Notes under the pieces: generated by a model
The model's input: the letters and a program-made list of their open reading frames with translations, nothing else
The model's database searches: none
Told to the model about the DNA's origin: nothing
Made by a program: the position numbers and the translations under genes
Part shown: positions 1 through 47,983 of the stretch, one piece after another
Layout of the letters: each line of letters starts with the position of its first letter
How positions within the stretch are numbered: position 1 is the stretch's first letter
Source of the DNA: a bacterium
Lineage (GTDB): Bacteria > Patescibacteriota > Minisyncoccia > Phycocordibacterales > VMGT01
Length of the DNA stretch: 64,000 bases
Direction: 5' to 3'
Assembly (NCBI GenBank): GCA_030697645.1
Contig: JAUYPI010000006.1
Location: 12,017 to 76,016, forward strand

Positions 1-99
1 GGCAAAGAGGAGCCGGATCTCGCCGCTGAAATTTTAGCGTGGCTGCGATAGTTGCAAGCAATCGTTTTTTATTGCGCGCCGGGCGGTAAGTGCTCAAAG

Positions 100-250
100 G
101 GCGTCATTGCGAGCGCTTGGCCGAAGCGGCGAGCGAAGCGTGGCGGGAAGCAACCAAGACATACCGGCCACAAACCCTGGATTGCGGAGCCTGTCCAGAG
201 CATAGCGTGGGATCACTCCGCTCCGCTGCGTTCCTCGCAATGACTGCTCT
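100..250. repeat. Family-3 structured inverted-repeat element, copy 1 (termini GTCATTGCGAGCG ... CTCGCAATGAC)
   Basis: Shares termini and inner motifs (GCGAGCG-GAGCGAAG ... CACTCCGCTCCGCT-TCCTCGCAATGAC) with the copy at 25722-25890. Confidence 0.5.
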
Positions 251-284
251 GTTGCGTGTGTTATTGCAACGCCCTTAAAAAAAC

Positions 285-327
285 TAGAACGCCCGGCATC
301 CATCGTGTTGATGCCGGGCGTGTCGTT
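285..327 (-). terminator. Rho-independent terminator for the minus-strand hydrolase gene
   Basis: GC stem CGCCCGGCATC...GATGCCGGGCG at 297-327 followed on the minus strand by a T-run (plus-strand TTAAAAAAACTAG at 276-290). Confidence 0.45.
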
Positions 328-356
328 GTACACTGCGTTCATTTTTGAAATGTACT

Positions 357-7574: not shown

Positions 7575-7680
7575 TTAACGTTTAATTTTCAAGTCTCAAT
7601 TTCCAATTTTCAATCAATTTTCAATTACTCAATTTTCAAACACGACGTCGTTCGTTATTGAAAATTAGAAATTGAAAATT
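7575..7680. repeat. Family-1 AT-rich palindromic element (unit AATTTTCAAT), copy 1
   Basis: Tandem TTTTCAAT units, core CAAACACGACGTCG, inverted ATTGAAAATT units. Ends about 10 nt before the ATG at 7690. Confidence 0.8.
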
Positions 7681-7689
7681 GCACACGCT

Positions 7690-9625: not shown

Positions 9626-9636
9626 GGTCTTTTTAT

Positions 9637-9772
9637 TTAATTTTCAATGCTCAATTTTCAATCAATTTTCAATGACCCAATTTTCAAACACGACGTCGTA
9701 CCGGCGCCGTCATTAAGTCATTGAAACATTGAAAATTTATTGGAAATTGCAAAATTGAAAATTGAAAATTTC
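9637..9772. repeat. Family-1 palindromic element, copy 2
   Basis: Between rpmJ stop and rpsM ATG. Core CCCAATTTTCAAACACGACGTCG. Confidence 0.8.
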
Positions 9773-24719: not shown

Positions 24720-25715
24720 ATGACAGCGGACGGGCAAAAAACGCTCCTCTCCGGCGTGAAGCCGACGGGAAGGCCGCACATTGGCAACTACTTTGGCGCG
24801 ATGAGGCAGTTCGTCGAGCTCTCGCGGCAGCACGGCGGCGGATTTTTCATGATCGCCGATTATCATGCGCTCACTACTCTCTACGACCCGCGCTCTCTTG
24901 CCGAGAACACGATCGGCGTTGCACTCGACTACCTCGCGATCGGGCTTGATCCGGAGCGCGCCGTGATTTTTAAACAGTCGGACGTGCAAGCGCATACCGA
25001 GCTTGCATGGATCTTTGATTGCATTACGACGATGCCCTACCTCATGCGCGCGCACGCGTTCAAGGATGCCGAGGCGAAAAATAAAGAGATCAGCGTCGGC
25101 ACGTTCAATTACCCGATGCTCATGGCCGCGGACATCCTGCTCTACAGCCCCGACATCGTGCCGGTCGGGGACGACCAGAAACAGCATCTCGAGATTGCGC
25201 GCGACACGGCAGCAAAATTCAACGGCATTTTTGGCGAGACCTTCAAGCTGCCAGAGCCGCACATACTCGAGCATGTCGGCACCGTCCCCGGGCTCGACGG
25301 CCGCAAGATGAGCAAGAGCTACAAAAACACCATCCCGCTCTTTGCAGAAGATGAAGAAATTGCGCAGCTTGTAATGAATATCGTGACGGATTCCCGAGCC
25401 AAAGGCGAGCCACTTGATCCGCACACTGATACTGTTTTTGCGCTCCACTCTCTTTTTGCGAACGAAACGGAACTCGCTCGGCTTGCCGAGAGATATCGAA
25501 GCGGCAGCATCGGCTACAGAGAATCAAAGGAGCTCCTCGTCGAGCGCCTGAAGACATTTGCCGCACCCCTGCGCGAAAAACGCAGAAACATGGCGAGCGA
25601 TAGAGCGCGTGTACTCGATGTGCTCGAGGAAGGCGCAAGAAAAGCTCTGGCGAGGGCGGGCGCGACAATGGCAGACGTGCGCCGAAAAATCGGCGTATGC
25701 TCATACCCGGGGTAG
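24720..25715 (+). CDS. trpS: Tryptophanyl-tRNA synthetase
   Basis: 331 aa class I aaRS. HIGN(Y) motif (PHIGNYFGA) and KMSKS. Length typical of TrpRS. Confidence 0.8.
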   Translation: MTADGQKTLLSGVKPTGRPHIGNYFGAMRQFVELSRQHGGGFFMIADYHALTTLYDPRSLAENTIGVALDYLAIGLDPERAVIFKQSDVQAHTELAWIFDCITTMPYLMRAHAFKDAEAKNKEISVGTFNYPMLMAADILLYSPDIVPVGDDQKQHLEIARDTAAKFNGIFGETFKLPEPHILEHVGTVPGLDGRKMSKSYKNTIPLFAEDEEIAQLVMNIVTDSRAKGEPLDPHTDTVFALHSLFANETELARLAERYRSGSIGYRESKELLVERLKTFAAPLREKRRNMASDRARVLDVLEEGARKALARAGATMADVRRKIGVCSYPG

Positions 25716-25721
25716 TCCCCT

Positions 25722-25890
25722 GAATCGGAACGAGTAATCACTCACACCCGTCATTGCGAGCGGAGCGAAGTAATCCAGTTGTTGAGCCGTAATTCTGGAT
25801 TGCCTCGTCGCTCCACTCCGTTCCGCTTCTCGCAATGACGGCTGTGTTGTGCAGCTTTGTGATAGGTGTGAGTGATTACCGGAACGAATG
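25722..25890. repeat. Family-3 structured nested inverted-repeat element, copy 2
   Basis: Outer IR GGAACGAGTAATCACTCACACC/GGTGTGAGTGATTACCGGAACG. Inner IR CGTCATTGCGAGCG/CTCGCAATGACGG. Central hairpin AATCCAG...CTGGATT. Confidence 0.5.
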
Positions 25891-25936
25891 TTGACGACCG
25901 TATGTCGTGCGTTGTATAGTAGTAGAGTATACGCCC

Positions 25937-26254
25937 ATGTCTACGTTAACGATTACTTTACCTCAGAGGAAGATGCGACAAGTGGAGCAACGCGCTCGCG
26001 CGGCGGGTTTTCGCGCTCCTGGCACATGGGCGCGCAGTATCATCGAAACCGAAGTGGCGCGCGATGAAGATGACGAGGAGATCACTGAAGATACTATTTT
26101 ACGGTGGTCGAGGGAGGCAAAGGTGCTGAAACGAGCAGGCAAACTTCCCATTTTGCGTTCATTGGCCGACCTCCGTTCTACTCGACGTGGTTTTTCGGGG
26201 CGACCAAATACTGCGAAGCGGTCAGGCCGCTCGCTCACCGTGGGCGCGCGATAA
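25937..26254 (+). CDS. Possible ribbon-helix-helix (CopG/ParD-like) DNA-binding protein
   Basis: MSTLTITLPQRKMRQVEQRARAAG resembles an RHH antitoxin N-terminus. ORF track start is 25907. No adjacent toxin recognised. Confidence 0.3.
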   Translation: MSTLTITLPQRKMRQVEQRARAAGFRAPGTWARSIIETEVARDEDDEEITEDTILRWSREAKVLKRAGKLPILRSLADLRSTRRGFSGRPNTAKRSGRSLTVGAR

Positions 26255-26294
26255 GAACCGTGCATAGAGGCGGGCATTGTCTCTCGTCTCTTTT

Positions 26295-26345
26295 TTGCGT
26301 CGTCTGTTTTCGTCTCTAAAAGCTAAAAGCTATCAGCTAACAGCT
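26295..26345. repeat. Family-2 palindromic element, copy c (short)
   Basis: CTCTAAAAGCTAAAAGCTATCAGCTAACAGCTT immediately upstream of the fusA ATG. Confidence 0.5.
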
Positions 26346-26351
26346 TGTACT

Positions 26352-28487
<2,136 letters not shown>

Positions 28488-31124: not shown

Positions 31125-31335
31125 TCAAAGCGCAAAACGCAAAACAACAACGCAAAATAACACAGTAAAATTCGAATTTCCAACCAACAAGCTCCAAATC
31201 AAATAAATTCCAAGCTCCAACCAACAAGCTCCAAACAAATTTCAAATTCCAATGCATCAAATCTCAAACACGCACGTCGTGTTTGGAAATTGGATTTTGA
31301 ATATTGGGATTTGTTTGGAAATTGTTTTTTGGAAA
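31125..31335. repeat. Family-1-variant giant palindrome (units TTCCAAA/TTTGGAA)
   Basis: Centre CTCAAACACGCACGTCGTGTTTGG. Arms with duplicated CCAACCAACAAGCTCCAAA. Outer arms GCAAAACGCAAAACAACAACGCAAAA / TTTTGCTTTTTGCACTGTTGTTTTTCGC. Confidence 0.6.
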
Positions 31336-31387
31336 TTGGAGATTCGTTTTGCTTTTTGCACTGTTGTTTTTCGCTTTACACTTTGCG

Positions 31388-32590: not shown

Positions 32591-32801
32591 GGGGGATGAT
32601 GGCGCAACCGCTCACGCCTTAAAATTTTGCGCTCGAGCTTCGGCGTTTAGAAATAACAGTCGCCTCATTGACGAAAAACGCATAACTCGCCTGCGGGCTC
32701 AAACAGATGCGTTTTTCTATTCGGCTCCTTTATTTCCAAAACGCCTCTCGCTATGCGCAAAATTTTAAGGCGTGAGCGGTTCCGGCGTGAGAGTGGTTTG
32801 A

Positions 32802-34779: not shown

Positions 34780-34910
34780 TCAAATTTTCAATTTTACAAT
34801 TTCCAATCAATTTTCAATGTGTCAATGACTCAATGACGGGCGAAGTCGTGTTTGAAAATTGGGTCATTGAAAATTCACTGAAAATTGAAAATTGTAAATT
34901 GAAAATTTCG
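34780..34910. repeat. Family-1 palindromic element, copy 10 (core in inverse orientation)
   Basis: Core CAATGACGGGCGAAGTCGTGTTTGAAAATTGGG. About 40 nt upstream of the rpsJ ATG. Confidence 0.8.
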
Positions 34911-34949
34911 AATGGGAGAGGTGGGTGGGCTTTTGCTTGATTTTTTGCC

Positions 34950-35318
34950 ATGGTTACTAAATCAACGGCTCCGCGTAAGCGCGCCGCGGCAGCGCGCAAA
35001 AAGGAGGAGGTTTCGCACAAGCTCCGCATTCGCATCCGCGCCTACGAGCACAAGATTCTTGACTCGTCCGTAAAGCAGGTCATGGACACCGCGCTTCGCT
35101 ACGATGCGCGGGTCGAGGGTCCGACGCCGCTTCCGGTTGAGATCAAAAAGTACACAGTCAACCGCTCATCGTTCGTGCACAAGAACGCGCGCGAGCAGTT
35201 CGAGATGCGCACGCACAAGCGCCTCATTGACATCCTCGACCCGGCGCCGAAGTTGATCGAAGCGCTTACGAATCTCACGTTGCCGTCGGGAGTGAATGTG
35301 GACGTGAAGATGATGTAA
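34950..35318 (+). CDS. rpsJ: Ribosomal protein S10 with basic N-terminal extension
   Basis: 122 aa. Canonical S10 core (IRIRAYEHKILDSSVKQVMDTA..., PLPVEIKKYTV). Confidence 0.9.
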   Translation: MVTKSTAPRKRAAAARKKEEVSHKLRIRIRAYEHKILDSSVKQVMDTALRYDARVEGPTPLPVEIKKYTVNRSSFVHKNAREQFEMRTHKRLIDILDPAPKLIEALTNLTLPSGVNVDVKMM

Positions 35319-35324
35319 AGGTTT

Positions 35325-35438
35325 GAGCTTTTAGCTTATAGCTGTTAGCTTTTAGGGGTTGTCGCGGCGTGCGCGAAGCACGCAATCGTTAGTCTGTCGT
35401 GCCTCTAAAAGCTATAAGCTAACAGCTAAGAGCTTTTT
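35325..35438. repeat. Family-2 palindromic element, copy d
   Basis: GAGCTTTTAGCTTATAGCTGTTAGCTTTTAGG - core with hairpin CGTGCGCGAAGCACG - CCTCTAAAAGCTATAAGCTAACAGCTAAGAGCTT. Confidence 0.6.
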
Positions 35439-37478: not shown

Positions 37479-37614
37479 AATAATTTCCAATTTTCAATTT
37501 TGCAATTTTCAATCAATTTTCAATTATCTAATTTTCAAACACGAACGTCGCCGTGATTGAGTCATTGAAACATTGAAAATTTATTGAAAATTGAGCATTG
37601 AAAATTGAAAATTT
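37479..37614. repeat. Family-1 palindromic element, copy 11
   Basis: Starts 3 nt after rplD stop. Ends 5 nt before the rplW ATG. Confidence 0.8.
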
Positions 37615-42934: not shown

Positions 42935-44446
42935 CTAGTCGTCCACAGCGGTTGCGACGAGCGCTCCGTTCGCTGTTGCGTCTACGGGCGAGGACTTTTT
43001 TGTACCATTTGTGCCGCGACTTGTGCCACGACGGATGTCAGTGCACTCCGTGCACTCATTGAGATGCTCGAGGATGCGCTCCGTCGTCGCTTTCTTCATC
43101 CTGCCGCAGGGCATGGTGGAAATGAACTGCTTCTTGCCACTGATCAAACCGGGGGCTTTCGAAAATGCAGCGGTGTGGCCCCAGACTGCACGGAGGGCTC
43201 TGTGGTCCTCAGGAATGTCGACGAGGACGGAGACACAAGAGCGTTGGTTGTTCTCCTCTTGGAGAGCGCTGATTAACTCTCGGCTTTCATCGCGGGCGGC
43301 TTTGACCGCAGCCTCGAGTCCATCTTCAGCCTCGTTGAGCTCACCTACCAGCTCGGCTACTCTCTGCACAAACTCCTCTCTTTCCGCTGATAGTCTCGCC
43401 GCAACCCTGCTGCGGCGTCGTGCGTACCATAAACATAAAATAGTACCAACGAGCACAAACACAGCCAGCACGATCACCAACTCATGCTCGACTCGTGTCT
43501 GTTTCACTCGCGTCGCATCAAGGGTACTTTGGAGCTCCTCTTGCTCAGCAATAGCCTTCTTAATCGCGTCCTCTATCTCTTTTTTCAGCCCATCGATTTC
43601 TCCTTGTAATGTCGTGATATTCTTTGCCTGGGAGACGACTTGGTCTGCACGCTGAGTAGCCAGGTCCACGTAAGCATCATGGGCTGCCATAAGCGCCTCA
43701 AGATGCTCCGCGTAAGAAGCCTGGTTTATGCCGATGGCCTCTTTGAGATTGATGATGCTTGCCTCCGATTCAGCTAACGCCCGGCGCGTCTCCTCGAGCT
43801 CGTCCCGGCGGGCACTGTGGTCTCGGCCCATGTTTTGGAGCTCTGTCTTGAGATCAGCAGCCTTTTGCTCAGCAGTGGTACGTGCCATGTATTCCGTGCT
43901 GAGCTCCGTTGTGAGTTCAAGCACCTTGGCGAGTGTTGCGGGTGTGTCGGCGAGCGTGCCTCCACCATCGAGAACCGTAGGCAGGTTGATCGTGTAGTCC
44001 GCGCAGATCGTATTGAGATCAGTGATCTGTGGATTTTTCCTCCGCAGTGCAGAGAAATACTGCGCCCCGGTCATTGCTCCGCTGTAGTCTTGCTTAAAAC
44101 CAGACACGGTGTCACCGCGAGTAATGGTGCGCGGTTTCCAGATGTTGGGAACGCCGGCGATCACTTCTGTACGCATCTCATCCGTGAGCGGTGGGGCATT
44201 GCGCGCGCCACCACAGGACACGCGATTGGCGGTACTGTCGCCGTTCTCGATGCGTGCGGGGTTCGCTTGTACGAGCGTTCTTGAGATTACGCTTGGTTGA
44301 GGCACCCTAGTCTCAAACACCCGCGTGGCCACCTCCTCATCAAGAAATGCCACTGTCTGCGTTTGCGCCGCGATATGCGGCACTGCCACCATGAGAGTGA
44401 ATCCGAGGACCGCCATCACCGCTAGCATACTTTTCGCACTTTCCAT
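42935..44446 (-). CDS. Bitopic membrane protein: signal peptide, LysM-like domain, coiled coil, TM, cytoplasmic coiled coil plus C-terminal Cys4 zinc-ribbon
   Basis: LysM-like ITRGDTVSGFKQDYSGAMTGAQYFSALRRKNPQITDLNTICADYTINLP. TM VIVLAVFVLVGTILCLWY. C-terminal CGR...CTECTD. Start MESAKSM at 44446 (ORF track 44524). Confidence 0.5.
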   Translation of the reverse strand: MESAKSMLAVMAVLGFTLMVAVPHIAAQTQTVAFLDEEVATRVFETRVPQPSVISRTLVQANPARIENGDSTANRVSCGGARNAPPLTDEMRTEVIAGVPNIWKPRTITRGDTVSGFKQDYSGAMTGAQYFSALRRKNPQITDLNTICADYTINLPTVLDGGGTLADTPATLAKVLELTTELSTEYMARTTAEQKAADLKTELQNMGRDHSARRDELEETRRALAESEASIINLKEAIGINQASYAEHLEALMAAHDAYVDLATQRADQVVSQAKNITTLQGEIDGLKKEIEDAIKKAIAEQEELQSTLDATRVKQTRVEHELVIVLAVFVLVGTILCLWYARRRSRVAARLSAEREEFVQRVAELVGELNEAEDGLEAAVKAARDESRELISALQEENNQRSCVSVLVDIPEDHRALRAVWGHTAAFSKAPGLISGKKQFISTMPCGRMKKATTERILEHLNECTECTDIRRGTSRGTNGTKKSSPVDATANGALVATAVDD

Positions 44447-44739
44447 CGTCTCCCCTCCTCGTTTTGTTGGGAACGCATGTCGCGTTCGTTGTTTTCGCCC
44501 CGTTTCGATTAAATCAAGGAACAACCCGGGGCTTCTTCGACCCGTCCATGCCCGGTCTATGCACGATATTTCCGAGGTGCACCTTACATCCTTCTAGACC
44601 GTATGTCAAGTGACAAGACTGCAGTAATTATGGTATCCATATTTTGGTTCCGGTGTCACAGTGAAATGATTGTTGCGCCGGTTGTTCATTGAGAGTTTGG
44701 TTGTATACGTAACTCGGACACTTCACAGGGAGACAGATT

Positions 44740-45216
44740 ATGCAAATTCGTCACACGATCGTTGTACTCTCGCTCTACGGCGCTCTCGGTGCTCTTGCTA
44801 TCTCGAGCGCCTCTGCCGGCGAGCAGGGGCCATTCGGTGCCTTCAAAAGCCGTATCCGGCCTGATGCAAGCGAGCATGTGGTGCGGCAAGGGTATCTCGT
44901 GCTTGAGGAAAAAAATCGCCGAGGCGGTTTTGGTCCTGCGGAGGTCAATGTCCAGCAAAACCACTGGGGAGCCAATAATACGTGGAACGACAATCGCGGT
45001 TCCGCGATGAGTTCGAGCACTGTGGTGGGCAACCTCGACAGTATGAGCGTGAGTGGCACCGGGGACGGCTTCATACTCGAAGTTGTTGATGGAGCAACGA
45101 CCCAGGGGAATAAGGATGTCCAGCAGGAAAGCGGCGTGACGACATCAGTTGGCGGTGATGCGTCTGGCACGCAGAGTCAGCAGCGGGCAGGCGCGCACGA
45201 CAAGAAATGGAAATGA
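44740..45216 (+). CDS. Small secreted protein (signal peptide)
   Basis: 158 aa. Cleavable signal LSLYGALGALAISSASA. AGGGAGA RBS. Confidence 0.45.
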   Translation: MQIRHTIVVLSLYGALGALAISSASAGEQGPFGAFKSRIRPDASEHVVRQGYLVLEEKNRRGGFGPAEVNVQQNHWGANNTWNDNRGSAMSSSTVVGNLDSMSVSGTGDGFILEVVDGATTQGNKDVQQESGVTTSVGGDASGTQSQQRAGAHDKKWK

Positions 45217-45237
45217 CGGCTTTGGGAAGGAGACGAC

Positions 45238-46854
45238 GTGAATAGAACTCCGTGCCTCTTAGGGGTTTGGATGTTACTTTTCTTCGCGGGCTGCTCGGCC
45301 GTCGCACCGTTTTCGGAGGAGCTCGCGAAAGTGCAGGGCCCGCCGGTGCGGCCTTTGGTCGCAGGTAATGAGGTACCACAGGCAACCGCAGAGAATCCGA
45401 CGCCAGCAAACGATTGGAAGCCGCGCGATTCGATAGTGGCGGGGCTTCTCTGTCTCAGTAAAAAGTTTGAAGGGCTTTACGCGAGTGGTGTGCCCCAATC
45501 AATTTTTACTGTGGGTGACATTGCCGACAACACACATACGGTCAAATACACAGAGGAGGGAACGGGTAAATTTCTTGCGAGCTCTCTCAACCGTGTCGTC
45601 GCAGACGCCGTGAAGTTTGCAGGCGTTGCATACCGTAACTGGCTCGACCTCTCGCTCGTGCGACAGCAATATGAATTCGCGCAGCGCGGATTGTTGCGGG
45701 ATTCCTACGCCATCGTCGCTGACGAACAAGGGCGGAAGAAGGCAGTCCACCAAGGCGGTCGGCCGGTCGCACAGTTTGAGCCGGTCGACTATTTTTTCTC
45801 CGGCGGGATCGAGATGATTAATTTCAGTGGCGGCGCGTATATTGAAGCAGGGGTTGCGGCATCGACGGCGGGTTACCAACAGTACCGCTTCGATTTTTAT
45901 TCAACGCTCGAGCTGGTACGCGCGAGCGACGGCGCTCCCGTTGGATTTATCCCGCAGATTAAGGAGGTAGTTGCTGAGGAGGTTCGTGCCGGATTTGCGC
46001 GATTTTTCGGCATTTGGCTGCCCATCGTGAGCGCGGGCTATAAGCGCCACGAGAGTCTCGTTGAGGTGCAGCGCGTGGTCTTCTACTACGGCGTCTATGT
46101 GTTGCTCTCGCGCGGTTATTCCATTACGGGCTGTGACCAGTTGCTTGACCCACATGTCGTCGCGTTGCTTGGGCCGACGGATCGTGTCACGATTGCACCG
46201 ATTCGGTTGGATGATGGTTCGCCCGGACCCGGTAGTATCCAGGTTTCGAAGCGAATCAACAAAGCGGATGCCGTCGTCACCACACCTGCCGTCGCTACAA
46301 AATCCGTACCACCTGATCAAAATGCTGTTCTCGTCCGATACGGGGCCGAGATTGCGGCGCTTGATCTTCGCGTCGCGAGCCTCGAGCACACGCGCGCGCC
46401 GATCGTCACCTCCGCGGAGGAAGCCGCCGCGACCCTTGCGGTTCGCGGCGCACGGACGATCGACATCCCCGTGCCGTTTCTTGAGGGGAAGGGAGACTGT
46501 TGCGGCGCGATCCAGCTCAAACAGGTGCTGATCGCACGAGTCTTAGTCCAGGGCGGTCTCTACGAGGTGACGGGGGCGACGAGTTTTGTCTGTCCAAAGA
46601 AGGCCTCGGAGGGGTTGCGCGGGCGGTTGCTCAAAGGTCGTCTCGACGTCGTTGTTGCGGCGCTTGCGAGCGACAAGATTCCGAGTAAGCCAGTTGTCGT
46701 CCTTGAGTCAGGCGGCGGCGTGGACTCTCTACGGAATGGCCGCAGGTTAGGTACCCCCGCCCAGCATGACGCGCTCTACCAGAGCGCCGAGTGGCACGAT
46801 AAAGGGGTGACATTTATCCACCTCAAACGAAAGGAGGCCGTGGCGAAACAATAA
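45238..46854 (+). CDS. Large lipoprotein (lipobox FFAGC), GTG start with AAGGAGA RBS
   Basis: 538 aa. MNRTPCLLGVWMLLFFAGCSAV lipoprotein signal. Confidence 0.55.
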   Translation: MNRTPCLLGVWMLLFFAGCSAVAPFSEELAKVQGPPVRPLVAGNEVPQATAENPTPANDWKPRDSIVAGLLCLSKKFEGLYASGVPQSIFTVGDIADNTHTVKYTEEGTGKFLASSLNRVVADAVKFAGVAYRNWLDLSLVRQQYEFAQRGLLRDSYAIVADEQGRKKAVHQGGRPVAQFEPVDYFFSGGIEMINFSGGAYIEAGVAASTAGYQQYRFDFYSTLELVRASDGAPVGFIPQIKEVVAEEVRAGFARFFGIWLPIVSAGYKRHESLVEVQRVVFYYGVYVLLSRGYSITGCDQLLDPHVVALLGPTDRVTIAPIRLDDGSPGPGSIQVSKRINKADAVVTTPAVATKSVPPDQNAVLVRYGAEIAALDLRVASLEHTRAPIVTSAEEAAATLAVRGARTIDIPVPFLEGKGDCCGAIQLKQVLIARVLVQGGLYEVTGATSFVCPKKASEGLRGRLLKGRLDVVVAALASDKIPSKPVVVLESGGGVDSLRNGRRLGTPAQHDALYQSAEWHDKGVTFIHLKRKEAVAKQ

Positions 46855-46930
46855 GTCGGAGCAATACGCAAGGTAATTGGTTGGTAGGGAGTTAGATCAG
46901 GAAAACAGTTTTCATGGCAAGGAGTTGGTT

Positions 46931-47365
46931 ATGTTTAGGAAGATGTTTGTTGCGGTGGCAGTTGTGACGCTGGTGTTTGGTGTATTCGGGACGAGTGTGA
47001 TCGTGTTTGCGGACGACGATTGGGACGGCCTCAACTTGTCGGACATCGTTGAGACCATCGTCGACGGGGCTGGGGGCCCAACCAGCGTTGTCATAAACAC
47101 TCACTCAGAGCAGCTCGGCGAGATTTATATCCGCGAAGGCGATTTTGAGGACATCACGACCTCCAATGTCGTTTTCGGAGCCTTGCTGCTGCAGGCTCTT
47201 GATTGTGACGGTTGTCCGGAGGCCGGCTCGAGCCTAGTTTTTAACGGCTGGAGCAAGCAGAGCGCGCTCACCGTGATTGAGCACGCATCGACCGGGGCGA
47301 TCGACGTCAGCAGTGTCGTGGCAGGGGCGGCAAAAATTGTTACCGTCCCAACTCCATCACCGTAA
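46931..47365 (+). CDS. Small secreted protein
   Basis: ATG at 46931 with AAGGAG RBS. Signal peptide MFRKMFVAVAVVTLVFGVFGTSVIVFA. Confidence 0.45.
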   Translation: MFRKMFVAVAVVTLVFGVFGTSVIVFADDDWDGLNLSDIVETIVDGAGGPTSVVINTHSEQLGEIYIREGDFEDITTSNVVFGALLLQALDCDGCPEAGSSLVFNGWSKQSALTVIEHASTGAIDVSSVVAGAAKIVTVPTPSP

Positions 47366-47401
47366 CGATGGTCAAGGGCTAAGCGCGATCCTAGCGCATA
47401 T

Positions 47402-47437
47402 GAGGCCAACCCTGCAGGGGTTGGCCTCGTTTTTTTG
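47402..47437 (+). terminator. Rho-independent terminator
   Basis: GAGGCCAACCC-TGCA-GGGGTTGGCCTC followed by GTTTTTTT. Confidence 0.65.
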
Positions 47438-47983
47438 CCCGCGCTGTATGTGAAAAAGTTTATAAAGACACCCCGAGAACGAAACAAGTAGCGAGTCCGG
47501 TTCTTAATTGCTCGAGGTCTTTTGGGTAAGTCGGCTGCAGGTACGGGCACCCTTTGGTGGAATCAAATTTTAATGATCTGCAGCCGATGATAGAAAGACG
47601 GCGGGGAAGGCTGAGATGGTCTTTAGTAGAAAAGAGATTTAGTGTTGCATCCCCCGCCGCCGTATTTTGAAGGCCATTTTGGTGTATTCATCCTCTAGTA
47701 AAGTAGTAGGCTAGTTTCCAAAATGGCCTAAAGCGGAAAGAACTGGGCTATGGGCTAGAAGACAGCAGCAATGGATCGAGAAAAGAGGACTAGTGGACCA
47801 GTGCCCTAGAAATCATGGCTGCTGTCTCTTGTAGACATACTTGAACATATTTTTTCTTTTGTCAATTGACAAAATTCTCACTAGATGATAATAAAATCCA
47901 GCCAGGTTGTCTCGAACCTTTACAGGCCTCAACCTGCTCCCTGGCGGCAGGAAGGCACCTTTCACTATTTTGGAGGAACCGCA

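Follow-up and report, generated by a model that had tools for sequence, protein, structure and literature searches.

We analysed a 64,000-nt stretch of contig JAUYPI010000006.1 (assembly GCA_030697645.1, positions 12,017 to 76,016, forward strand) from a bacterium of the Patescibacteriota, hereafter called the window, with the focus on a short palindromic repeat that it contains in two copies. The core of copy 2 begins 33 nt after the stop codon of trpS (tryptophan-tRNA ligase, 24720-25715, plus strand, PF00579), and the copy is followed by a promoter-like sequence on the plus strand (TTGACG-18-TATAGT, 25891-25920), an arrangement that a preliminary description of this DNA had stated correctly. 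The promoter-like sequence lies outside the element and belongs to its context; it precedes a 105-aa open reading frame (ORF; 25937-26254) and fusA (26277-28487), giving the transcription unit next after copy 2 a promoter-like site of its own. Copy 1 sits between convergent genes. A clean intrinsic terminator on the minus strand (287-321; ACGCCCGGCATC..GATGCCGGGCGT, then TTCTAGTTTTTTT) serves the minus-strand amidohydrolase gene at 357-1109 and directly adjoins copy 1, which therefore lies beyond a terminator and does not replace one. The repeat itself was rejected as an intrinsic terminator, there being no T-tract after either copy.

The repeat is recognised by an 11-mer, GTCATTGCGAG, which has four exact matches in the window (103-113(+), 234-244(-), 25750-25760(+) and 25829-25839(-)) against 0.05 expected; a count of four or more was reached in 0 of 100 shuffles of the window. 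The four sites form two inverted pairs, spanning 102-245 (copy 1) and 25749-25840 (copy 2), which bears out the earlier statement that two copies with common inverted termini are present. The terminal tags read CGTC at 102, 25749 and 25840(-), and AGTC at 245(-).

In copy 2, the left arm (25749-25778, plus strand) consists of the CGTC tag, ATTGC, GAG-CGGAG-CGAA, GTAAT (with one G.T wobble) and a CCAG tail. The right arm (25795-25840, minus strand) reads CGTC-ATTGC-GAG-AAGCGGAACGGAGTGGAGCGA-CGAG-GCAAT-CCAG, and both arms thus end in the same CCAG tail. Between them lies a spacer or loop (25779-25794, TTGTTGAGCCGTAATT). The inserted segment is longer in the right arm than in the left, so the pair is a heterodimer. 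The core is enclosed by an outer inverted repeat of unique sequence with 15-nt arms: GTAATCACTCACACC (25734-25748), which directly abuts the CGTC tag, and GGTGTGAGTGATTAC (25865-25879), the sole other match to the left arm in the window. A small hairpin (GCTG-TGTTGTG-CAGC, 25841-25855, plus strand) is located just past the right terminus, and its start, GCTGTGTTG, is common to copy 1.

Copy 1 is longer than copy 2 and degenerate. Its left arm (102-157, plus strand) contains a 33-nt insert and a degenerate inner half (GCAA-CCAA), its middle part (158-207) retains a remnant of the inner start of the right arm (CCTGGATTGCGGAG, 176-189), and its right arm (208-245, minus strand) reads AGTC-ATTGC-GAG-GAACGCAGCGGAG-CGGA-GTGAT-CCCA. 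The sequence CACTCCGYTCCGCT is common to the right arms of both copies, and the likeness between the copies runs about 10 nt past the right terminus (GCTSTGTTG); CAATGACKGCTSTGTTG has two exact matches in the window, at copies 1 and 2 only. In its extension past this terminus (246-276, plus strand), copy 1 has GCTCTGTTG in common with copy 2 and a small hairpin (GTTGC..GCAAC, 251-270). The extension also contains the right arm (ACGCCCTT, 269-276) of a short outer inverted repeat, whose left arm (AAGGGCGT, 97-104) overlaps the tag and pairs with the right arm at 8/8 positions. The outer inverted repeat noted for copy 2 is real, and copy 1 has one of its own. The internal CCAG/CTGG helix, also described earlier, is present in copy 2 and imperfect in copy 1.

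The 92-nt core of copy 2 forms a long hairpin on either strand. Calculated folding energies are -40.2 and -39.6 kcal/mol as RNA (z -5.4 for the plus strand and -5.9 for the minus strand) and -23.1 and -25.2 kcal/mol as DNA (z -5.4 and -6.4), and inclusion of the outer inverted repeat brings z to -7.2 and -8.1. A covariance model of the arm, a check suggested along with the original observation, matches only the four arms of copies 1 and 2 in a scan of the window. The right and left arms of copy 2 score 44.3 bits (E 5e-9) and 35.0 bits (E 1e-6), while the left arm (13.4 bits, E 0.29) and right arm (9.4 bits, E 3, a weak match) of copy 1 are near noise.

The window copies belong to a dispersed family of nested inverted repeats, as had been supposed, with hundreds of members in public data. 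The pattern GTCATTGCGAG-N50-80-CTCGCAATGAC, searched in a viral-contig collection and a one-genome-per-species collection, matches at least 120 viral-contig loci and at least 120 genome loci. Family statistics are based on 278 copies, with 364 distinct arms, from 240 fetched viral and genome loci (these and other fetched loci are cited below by L numbers). Among the matches listed, the genome hosts span at least seven phyla. They include proteobacteria (Bradyrhizobium, Sphingomonas, Novosphingobium, Sphingobium, Micavibrio, and uncultured Alpha- and Gammaproteobacteria), Bacteroidota (Mucilaginibacter, Pedobacter and Flavobacterium), several Patescibacteria including Berkelbacteria, and also Chloroflexi, Anaerolineae, Dehalococcoidia, Planctomycetota, Pirellulales, Microcoleus (Cyanobacteria) and Desulfomonilaceae (Desulfobacterota). 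The left arm of copy 2 agrees at 29 of its 30 positions with an arm on the Novosphingobium resinovorum plasmid pSA1. BLAST of the arm against plasmid and phage collections, a search too insensitive for a 30-nt arm, gave one plasmid match and no phage match.

The distinct arms follow the plan YGTC-ATTGC-GAG-[optional variable insert]-CG(AA/TG/CG)-GCAAT-C(C/T)(A/C), and the complete element consists of two facing arms with the tags outermost, separated by a spacer of 8-40 nt that varies in sequence. The ATTGC...GCAAT pair is found in 567 of 631 arms, among which the commonest tails are CCAG (220) and CCAT (54). GTC is preceded by C in 66% of copies and by T in 29%. Arms with the CGTC tag mostly end in CCAG or CCAT and those with TGTC mostly in CTCN or CTTN, a correlation hinting at two subfamilies, whose division may follow host group.

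The simplest copies have arms that are complementary throughout: GAG-CGNAG-CGAA in one pairs with TTCG-CTNCG-CTC in the other, and in 21 of 27 such copies this extends to the N position. The central GCGNAGC of such arms resembles the very stable DNA mini-hairpin with a GNA triloop. Many other copies carry an extra hairpin of variable sequence in one or both arms (e.g. GCGCCGC-ATG-GCGGCGC or GCTGAC-GAA-GTCAGC). These inserts are flanked by GA..GA in 57 of 145 cases and fold better than shuffled sequences (-3.4 versus -1.4 kcal/mol, with 45% versus 19% at -2 kcal/mol or lower). With its arms facing each other, the element can form one long hairpin, which with inserts gains one or two side branches and becomes a three- or four-way junction; because ATTGC and GCAAT are complementary within a single arm, it can also be drawn as two separate stem-loops.

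Compensatory changes, which the preliminary description had named as a point to look for, are found both in the apical hairpins and in a sister family. The paired positions of the apical hairpins have a covariation score of 0.081 versus 0.025, and 0 of 500 shuffles scored as high. In the sister family (GTCATTCTGAG...CTCAGAATGAC), the inner helix is GAAGAATC/GATTCTTC in 15 of 15 copies, and ATTGC:GCAAT has accordingly shifted to ATTCT:AGAAT in step. Such co-variation of inner and outer motifs is unneeded for the long hairpin, and points either to arms with stems of their own or to a single recognition motif present in two places. The sister family has the form TGTCATTCTGAG-[insert]-CGAAGAATCTC ... 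GAGATTCTTCG-[insert]-CTCAGAATGACA, the same plan as the window element, and was seen at L247-L259 (viral contigs), L016 1438-1490 and L055; arms of both families can adjoin each other.

Similarity among the family copies ends sharply at the tag. The base flanking it is C or T on the left in 95% and G or A on the right in 96%, and beginning with the third flanking base the flanks are no more complementary than expected by chance. A target-site duplication would leave direct repeats beside the family copies, but repeats of 1-8 bp there occur at or below chance frequency. An all-against-all BLAST of the 4,653 ORFs located within 3 kb of elements identified no recurrent ORF family near the elements in the 120 genome loci, where the neighbours are unrelated housekeeping genes; the ORFs that recur near viral-contig copies encode phage or gene transfer agent-type structural proteins. 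No transposase domain was detected by Pfam among the ~55 ORFs of the window. Long-range pairs of termini enclosing a candidate gene were likewise absent, such pairs enclosing ordinary genes (e.g. nuoD in L237).

Both window copies, and most arms in the fetched loci, which were chosen by a dimer pattern, are dimers; solo arms and tandem arrays of arms also occur. The inner parts of copies from the same locus have a median similarity of 0.73, versus 0.63 for copies from different loci, and several pairs at separate sites are 85-100% identical. Copies of the same genome are thus alike in their variable parts, which indicates that whole dimers are duplicated as units within genomes. The element is a non-coding palindromic repeat with sharp boundaries, and within genomes it multiplies in dimer form.

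It was earlier likened to a miniature inverted-repeat transposable element (MITE). In the classical sense, this would make it a deletion derivative of a DDE-type insertion sequence with YGTCATTGCGAG termini, moved via terminal inverted repeats of 11-13 bp. The perfect terminal inverted repeats, the small size, the many dispersed copies and the copying of whole units within genomes agree with such an origin. Target-site duplications, together with DDE parent insertion sequences that are known or inferred, characterise MITEs such as the Neisseria Correia element, Nezha and Chunjie. The present element is like these in its small size, its lack of coding capacity and its dispersal, and in having terminal inverted repeats and transcripts that would form hairpins, but its target-site duplications do not exceed chance at any length, neither a transposase nor a recurring ORF lies within 3 kb of the 278 copies, no terminus pair encloses a candidate gene, and a parent element with the same termini, which the MITE proposal had called for, was found neither in the 240 loci nor in the window. 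In addition, the occurrence of arms alone and in tandem arrays is typical of repetitive extragenic palindromes (REPs) and bacterial interspersed mosaic elements (BIMEs), and the terminal motif is repeated inside the element as a covarying complement, which transposase-binding repeats would not require. We therefore regard a classical MITE as highly improbable. The notion of a mobile-element-like repeat was nevertheless half right, since the REP/REPIN type is itself thought to be small non-autonomous mobile DNA.

Three of the tandem arrays (L205 553-720, L042 8521-8760 and L055 10722-10986) consist of an arm or half-arm plus ~20 nt of flank, repeated 3-4 times and adjoining a complete dimer. 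Their period is ~35-40 nt, and they have the look of slippage or of repeated partial copying at a terminus.

A REP superfamily characterised by an unpaired terminal CGTC tag (also TGTC or CCTC) has been described (Di Nocera, De Gregorio, Rocco 2013, BMC Genomics 14:522; PMC3733652). According to the text of that paper, the stems of these REPs start with AT and the units have a CCA tail. They occur mostly as inverted dimers with tags outermost and spacers of 20-100 bp, often heterodimers, alongside solo units and rare clusters. They are intergenic, located near ORF 3' ends and enriched between convergent or co-directional genes, and in some species are nested inside larger, locus-specific palindromes; no transposase is associated with them, and no gene for a REP-associated tyrosine transposase (RAYT) is flanked by units. 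The superfamily includes Neisseria dRS3 and Rickettsia RPE-4 and RPE-6, and its hosts are mainly Alphaproteobacteria, with five phyla in all (PMC3733652). The window element corresponds to this published account in its CGTC tag, the AT start of its stem and its CCA-type tail, in its inverted dimers with tags outward, its heterodimers and the unique outer palindromes of some copies, in its intergenic position near ORF 3' ends without a flanking transposase, and in part of its host range (Bradyrhizobium, sphingomonads, Micavibrio, Bacteroidetes).

We conclude, with a probability of about 0.72, that each window copy is an inverted dimer (a REPIN-like doublet) of a CGTC-tagged REP. The window element is a known kind of genomic repeat, neither a new RNA gene nor a classical miniature transposon. 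What is new here, relative to the text of PMC3733652, is the geometry of the unit, which does not appear there, and a host range much wider than published, to which Patescibacteria, Chloroflexi, Planctomycetota, Cyanobacteria, Desulfobacterota and viral contigs are added.

Unique flanking palindromes of at least 9 nt are present at 7.5% of copies versus 1.4% of controls, window copy 2 being among them. In a metagenome-assembled genome of Solimonas, one outer palindrome (CCTCAGTTTGAAAT / ATTTCAAACTGAGG) flanks dimers on two contigs (L136 1329-1428 and L164 4388-4487); here the composite of outer palindrome and dimer is itself repeated, as the text of PMC3733652 describes for H. neapolitanus.

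Heuristic ORF calls place 205 of 277 copies outside genes. The flanking gene pairs are convergent for 39 copies and divergent for 21, compared with background counts of 269 and 255. The stop codon of the upstream gene is at a median distance of 31-38 nt, and many copies lie within 10 nt of it. Among the 85 copies between co-directional genes, the longer arm is on the 5' side 32 times and on the 3' side 35 times. The mismatch types are likewise symmetric, and there is no sign of a preferred transcribed strand. With regard to trpS, the window TrpS is identical to a protein of assembly GCA_034376905.1, and its best named relatives, at ~65% identity, are from Candidatus Vogelbacteria and Kaiserbacteria. 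Relatives with 78-86% identical TrpS have other genes downstream and no element after trpS; the element is thus not a conserved part of the trpS gene.

These data bear on the other proposal of the preliminary description, a structured small RNA, and more broadly on a structured non-coding RNA or cis-regulatory element of an untranslated region acting in one orientation (a small RNA, attenuator or protein-binding RNA). The very stable fold would suit an RNA role, as would the covarying hairpins of variable sequence at fixed positions and the location just after stop codons, where transcription is likely; an RNA-level action is also argued for many REPs in the text of PMC3733652. However, searches of the window and 18 loci from many phyla gave no Rfam match at the gathering score, with chance microRNA-like matches only (E 0.25-2), the elements have no preferred orientation relative to the upstream gene (35 versus 32), and the types of hetero-pair are symmetric. 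The neighbouring genes are unrelated, the element is not conserved after trpS even in close relatives, and there is no U-tract, while equal pairing on both strands comes free with a DNA palindrome. An RNA acting in one orientation is accordingly improbable, and the small-RNA proposal is a poorer fit than a CGTC REP dimer.

REPINs, according to what Bertels and Rainey reportedly described in 2011, are REP doublets that form hairpins and are mobilised by RAYT transposases, the REPs being of the GTAG type and occurring in Pseudomonas and Enterobacteria. Like REPINs, the element consists of two inverted REP units and a spacer, forms one long hairpin, is copied as a unit within a genome, is extragenic and lacks a target duplication, and its singlets, as in REPINs, look like decayed doublets. 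It differs in its tag, which is CGTC and not GTAG, and no RAYT/Y1 transposase flanked by units was found in the fetched loci or the 64-kb window. By analogy with the GTAG REPs and their RAYTs (HUH/Y1 enzymes), a CGTC REP dimer would be non-autonomous and rely on a trans-acting enzyme for its copying within genomes, and this enzyme would recognise the folded arm together with its tag on single-stranded DNA.

Several points weigh against the assignment to the CGTC REPs. No mobilising enzyme was found among the ORFs within 3 kb of the 278 copies or in the window, and to our knowledge none is known for CGTC REPs, the one large REP superfamily of which this holds. Arms close to identical across phyla are unusual for REP/RAYT systems, which are normally lineage-specific; the element is almost constant in sequence across phyla, unlike REPINs. 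This near-identity from Alphaproteobacteria to Patescibacteria and viral contigs argues for a conserved recognition partner or frequent horizontal spread. The isolated window arms fold no better than shuffles (z +1.4, +0.6, -0.9 and +1.2), so that the hairpin within an arm would either depend on a protein or be irrelevant as a fold. Because the loci were selected by a dimer pattern, part of the predominance of dimers stems from the search, and the gene calls behind the position statistics come from crude ORF heuristics. For the window copies, neither an empty site nor an insertion polymorphism was demonstrable among the relatives with 78-86% TrpS identity, whose different downstream genes leave no orthologous empty site to align.

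Further points concern the unit itself. In the text of PMC3733652 the families CGTC-1 to CGTC-4 have a continuous stem of 8-9 bp and a loop of 4-5 nt. In contrast, the arm of the present element has a stem of 5 bp (ATTGC/GCAAT) and an interior of 12 to 30+ nt comprising GAG...CGAA and an optional, highly variable apical hairpin, and pairing between its two arms is far better than pairing within either one. Since its dimensions differ from those of the four families, we file the element under the superfamily as a further family. The exact sequence type was not found in the text or supplements of PMC3733652, the figures lying outside the comparison. A literature search by raw sequence returned only unrelated primers.

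It is conceivable, though we think it unlikely, that the ATTGC/GCAAT type is a distinct and undescribed class of CGTC doublet, with near-invariant arms over at least seven phyla, Patescibacteria of minimal genome and viral contigs, copied by an enzyme other than a RAYT. Candidates for the copying enzyme would in that case be a universally conserved host enzyme and a structure-specific nuclease or recombinase with the pseudo-symmetric four-way junction as its substrate. If this were true, the small gene content of Patescibacteria could narrow the search for the mobiliser of CGTC REPs.

REPs and BIMEs of E. coli bind gyrase, integration host factor and DNA polymerase I, and the element might similarly be a site maintained by the host for chromosome function, and not a selfishly spreading repeat, either as a binding or structural site for a conserved protein or as a cruciform for a junction-specific enzyme. 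Near-identical ATTGC/GCAAT motifs across phyla, two copies of one 5-bp duplex placed symmetrically about a junction, and the absence of both a dedicated transposase and a strand bias are in keeping with this. On the other hand, copy number and positions differ between genomes, the post-trpS copy is missing from close relatives, with variable inserts between them the motifs keep no constant double-stranded spacing, and copies are present on viral contigs. The size of CGTC families also varies up to 50-fold with an uneven distribution across species, which in the text of PMC3733652 is argued to exclude a general chromosomal role. A host-maintained site thus has little probability. Other identities (integron attC sites, dif/Xer sites, IS200/IS605 ends, ROSE thermosensors, DNA uptake sequences and CRISPR repeats) were dropped, as their motifs do not match.

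For copy 2, taken as a CGTC REP dimer, a role at the 3' end of trpS may be considered. If transcribed together with trpS, it would form a very stable 3' hairpin without a U-tract, for which protection of the mRNA 3' end or a reduction of read-through would be more plausible than action as a classical terminator. Copy 2 probably helps to determine the 3' end of the trpS transcript. A palindrome of another type (TCCAAGCTCCAACCAACAAGCTCCAAACAAATTTCAAATTCCAA / inverse) is located in the window at 31209-31340, and an element 71-77% similar to it follows trpS directly in L243 (4131-4354; TrpS 82% identical), where it occupies the same post-trpS position as the CGTC dimer in the window.

The elements give rise to spurious ORFs and false N-terminal extensions in the window (25701-25835(-), 94-342(-) and 52-243(+)) and elsewhere (L021 4338, L129 1075-1809 and L124 7149-7505). 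Recurring junk peptides are ..LDYFAPLAMTG (from 25701-25835(-)), ..SARNDAL, MRGAKRRSNP..LLRFARNDE, RHCERSEAIQ and HCEEQSDEAI..DCFAPLAMT, and ORFs derived from the element are likely a source of junk 'hypothetical proteins' in databases. Recognising CGTC elements avoids such false gene calls, as well as false small-RNA or MITE calls.

A second and far more abundant repeat family in the window comprises large AT-rich palindromes of (CAATTTT)n-like units (e.g. AATTTTCAATTATCAATTTTCAATCAATTT... / ...ATTGAAAATTGAAAATT), with arms of 22-54 nt that are 28-90 nt apart. Many of these are located between genes for ribosomal proteins, rpoA, grpE and tuf. They are found at 7590-7681, 9636-9766, 10164-10307, 10772-10871, 11565-11663, 14164-14292, 14764-14889, 15498-15642, 34780-34911 and 37503-37593. 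Two further strong inverted repeats are present at 32603-32784 and 35317-35436; one of the two has 30-nt arms of 97% complementarity placed 122 nt apart (CGCAACCGCTCACGCCTTAAAATTTTGCGC), and the other, located between rpsJ and rplC, is palindromic and made up of AGCTTTTAGCTTATAGCTGTTAGC repeats. Further along the window, five consecutive ORFs without a Pfam match (42935-49915) precede a 1043-aa ORF (50574-53705, plus strand) with SNF2-related helicase and methyltransferase domains.

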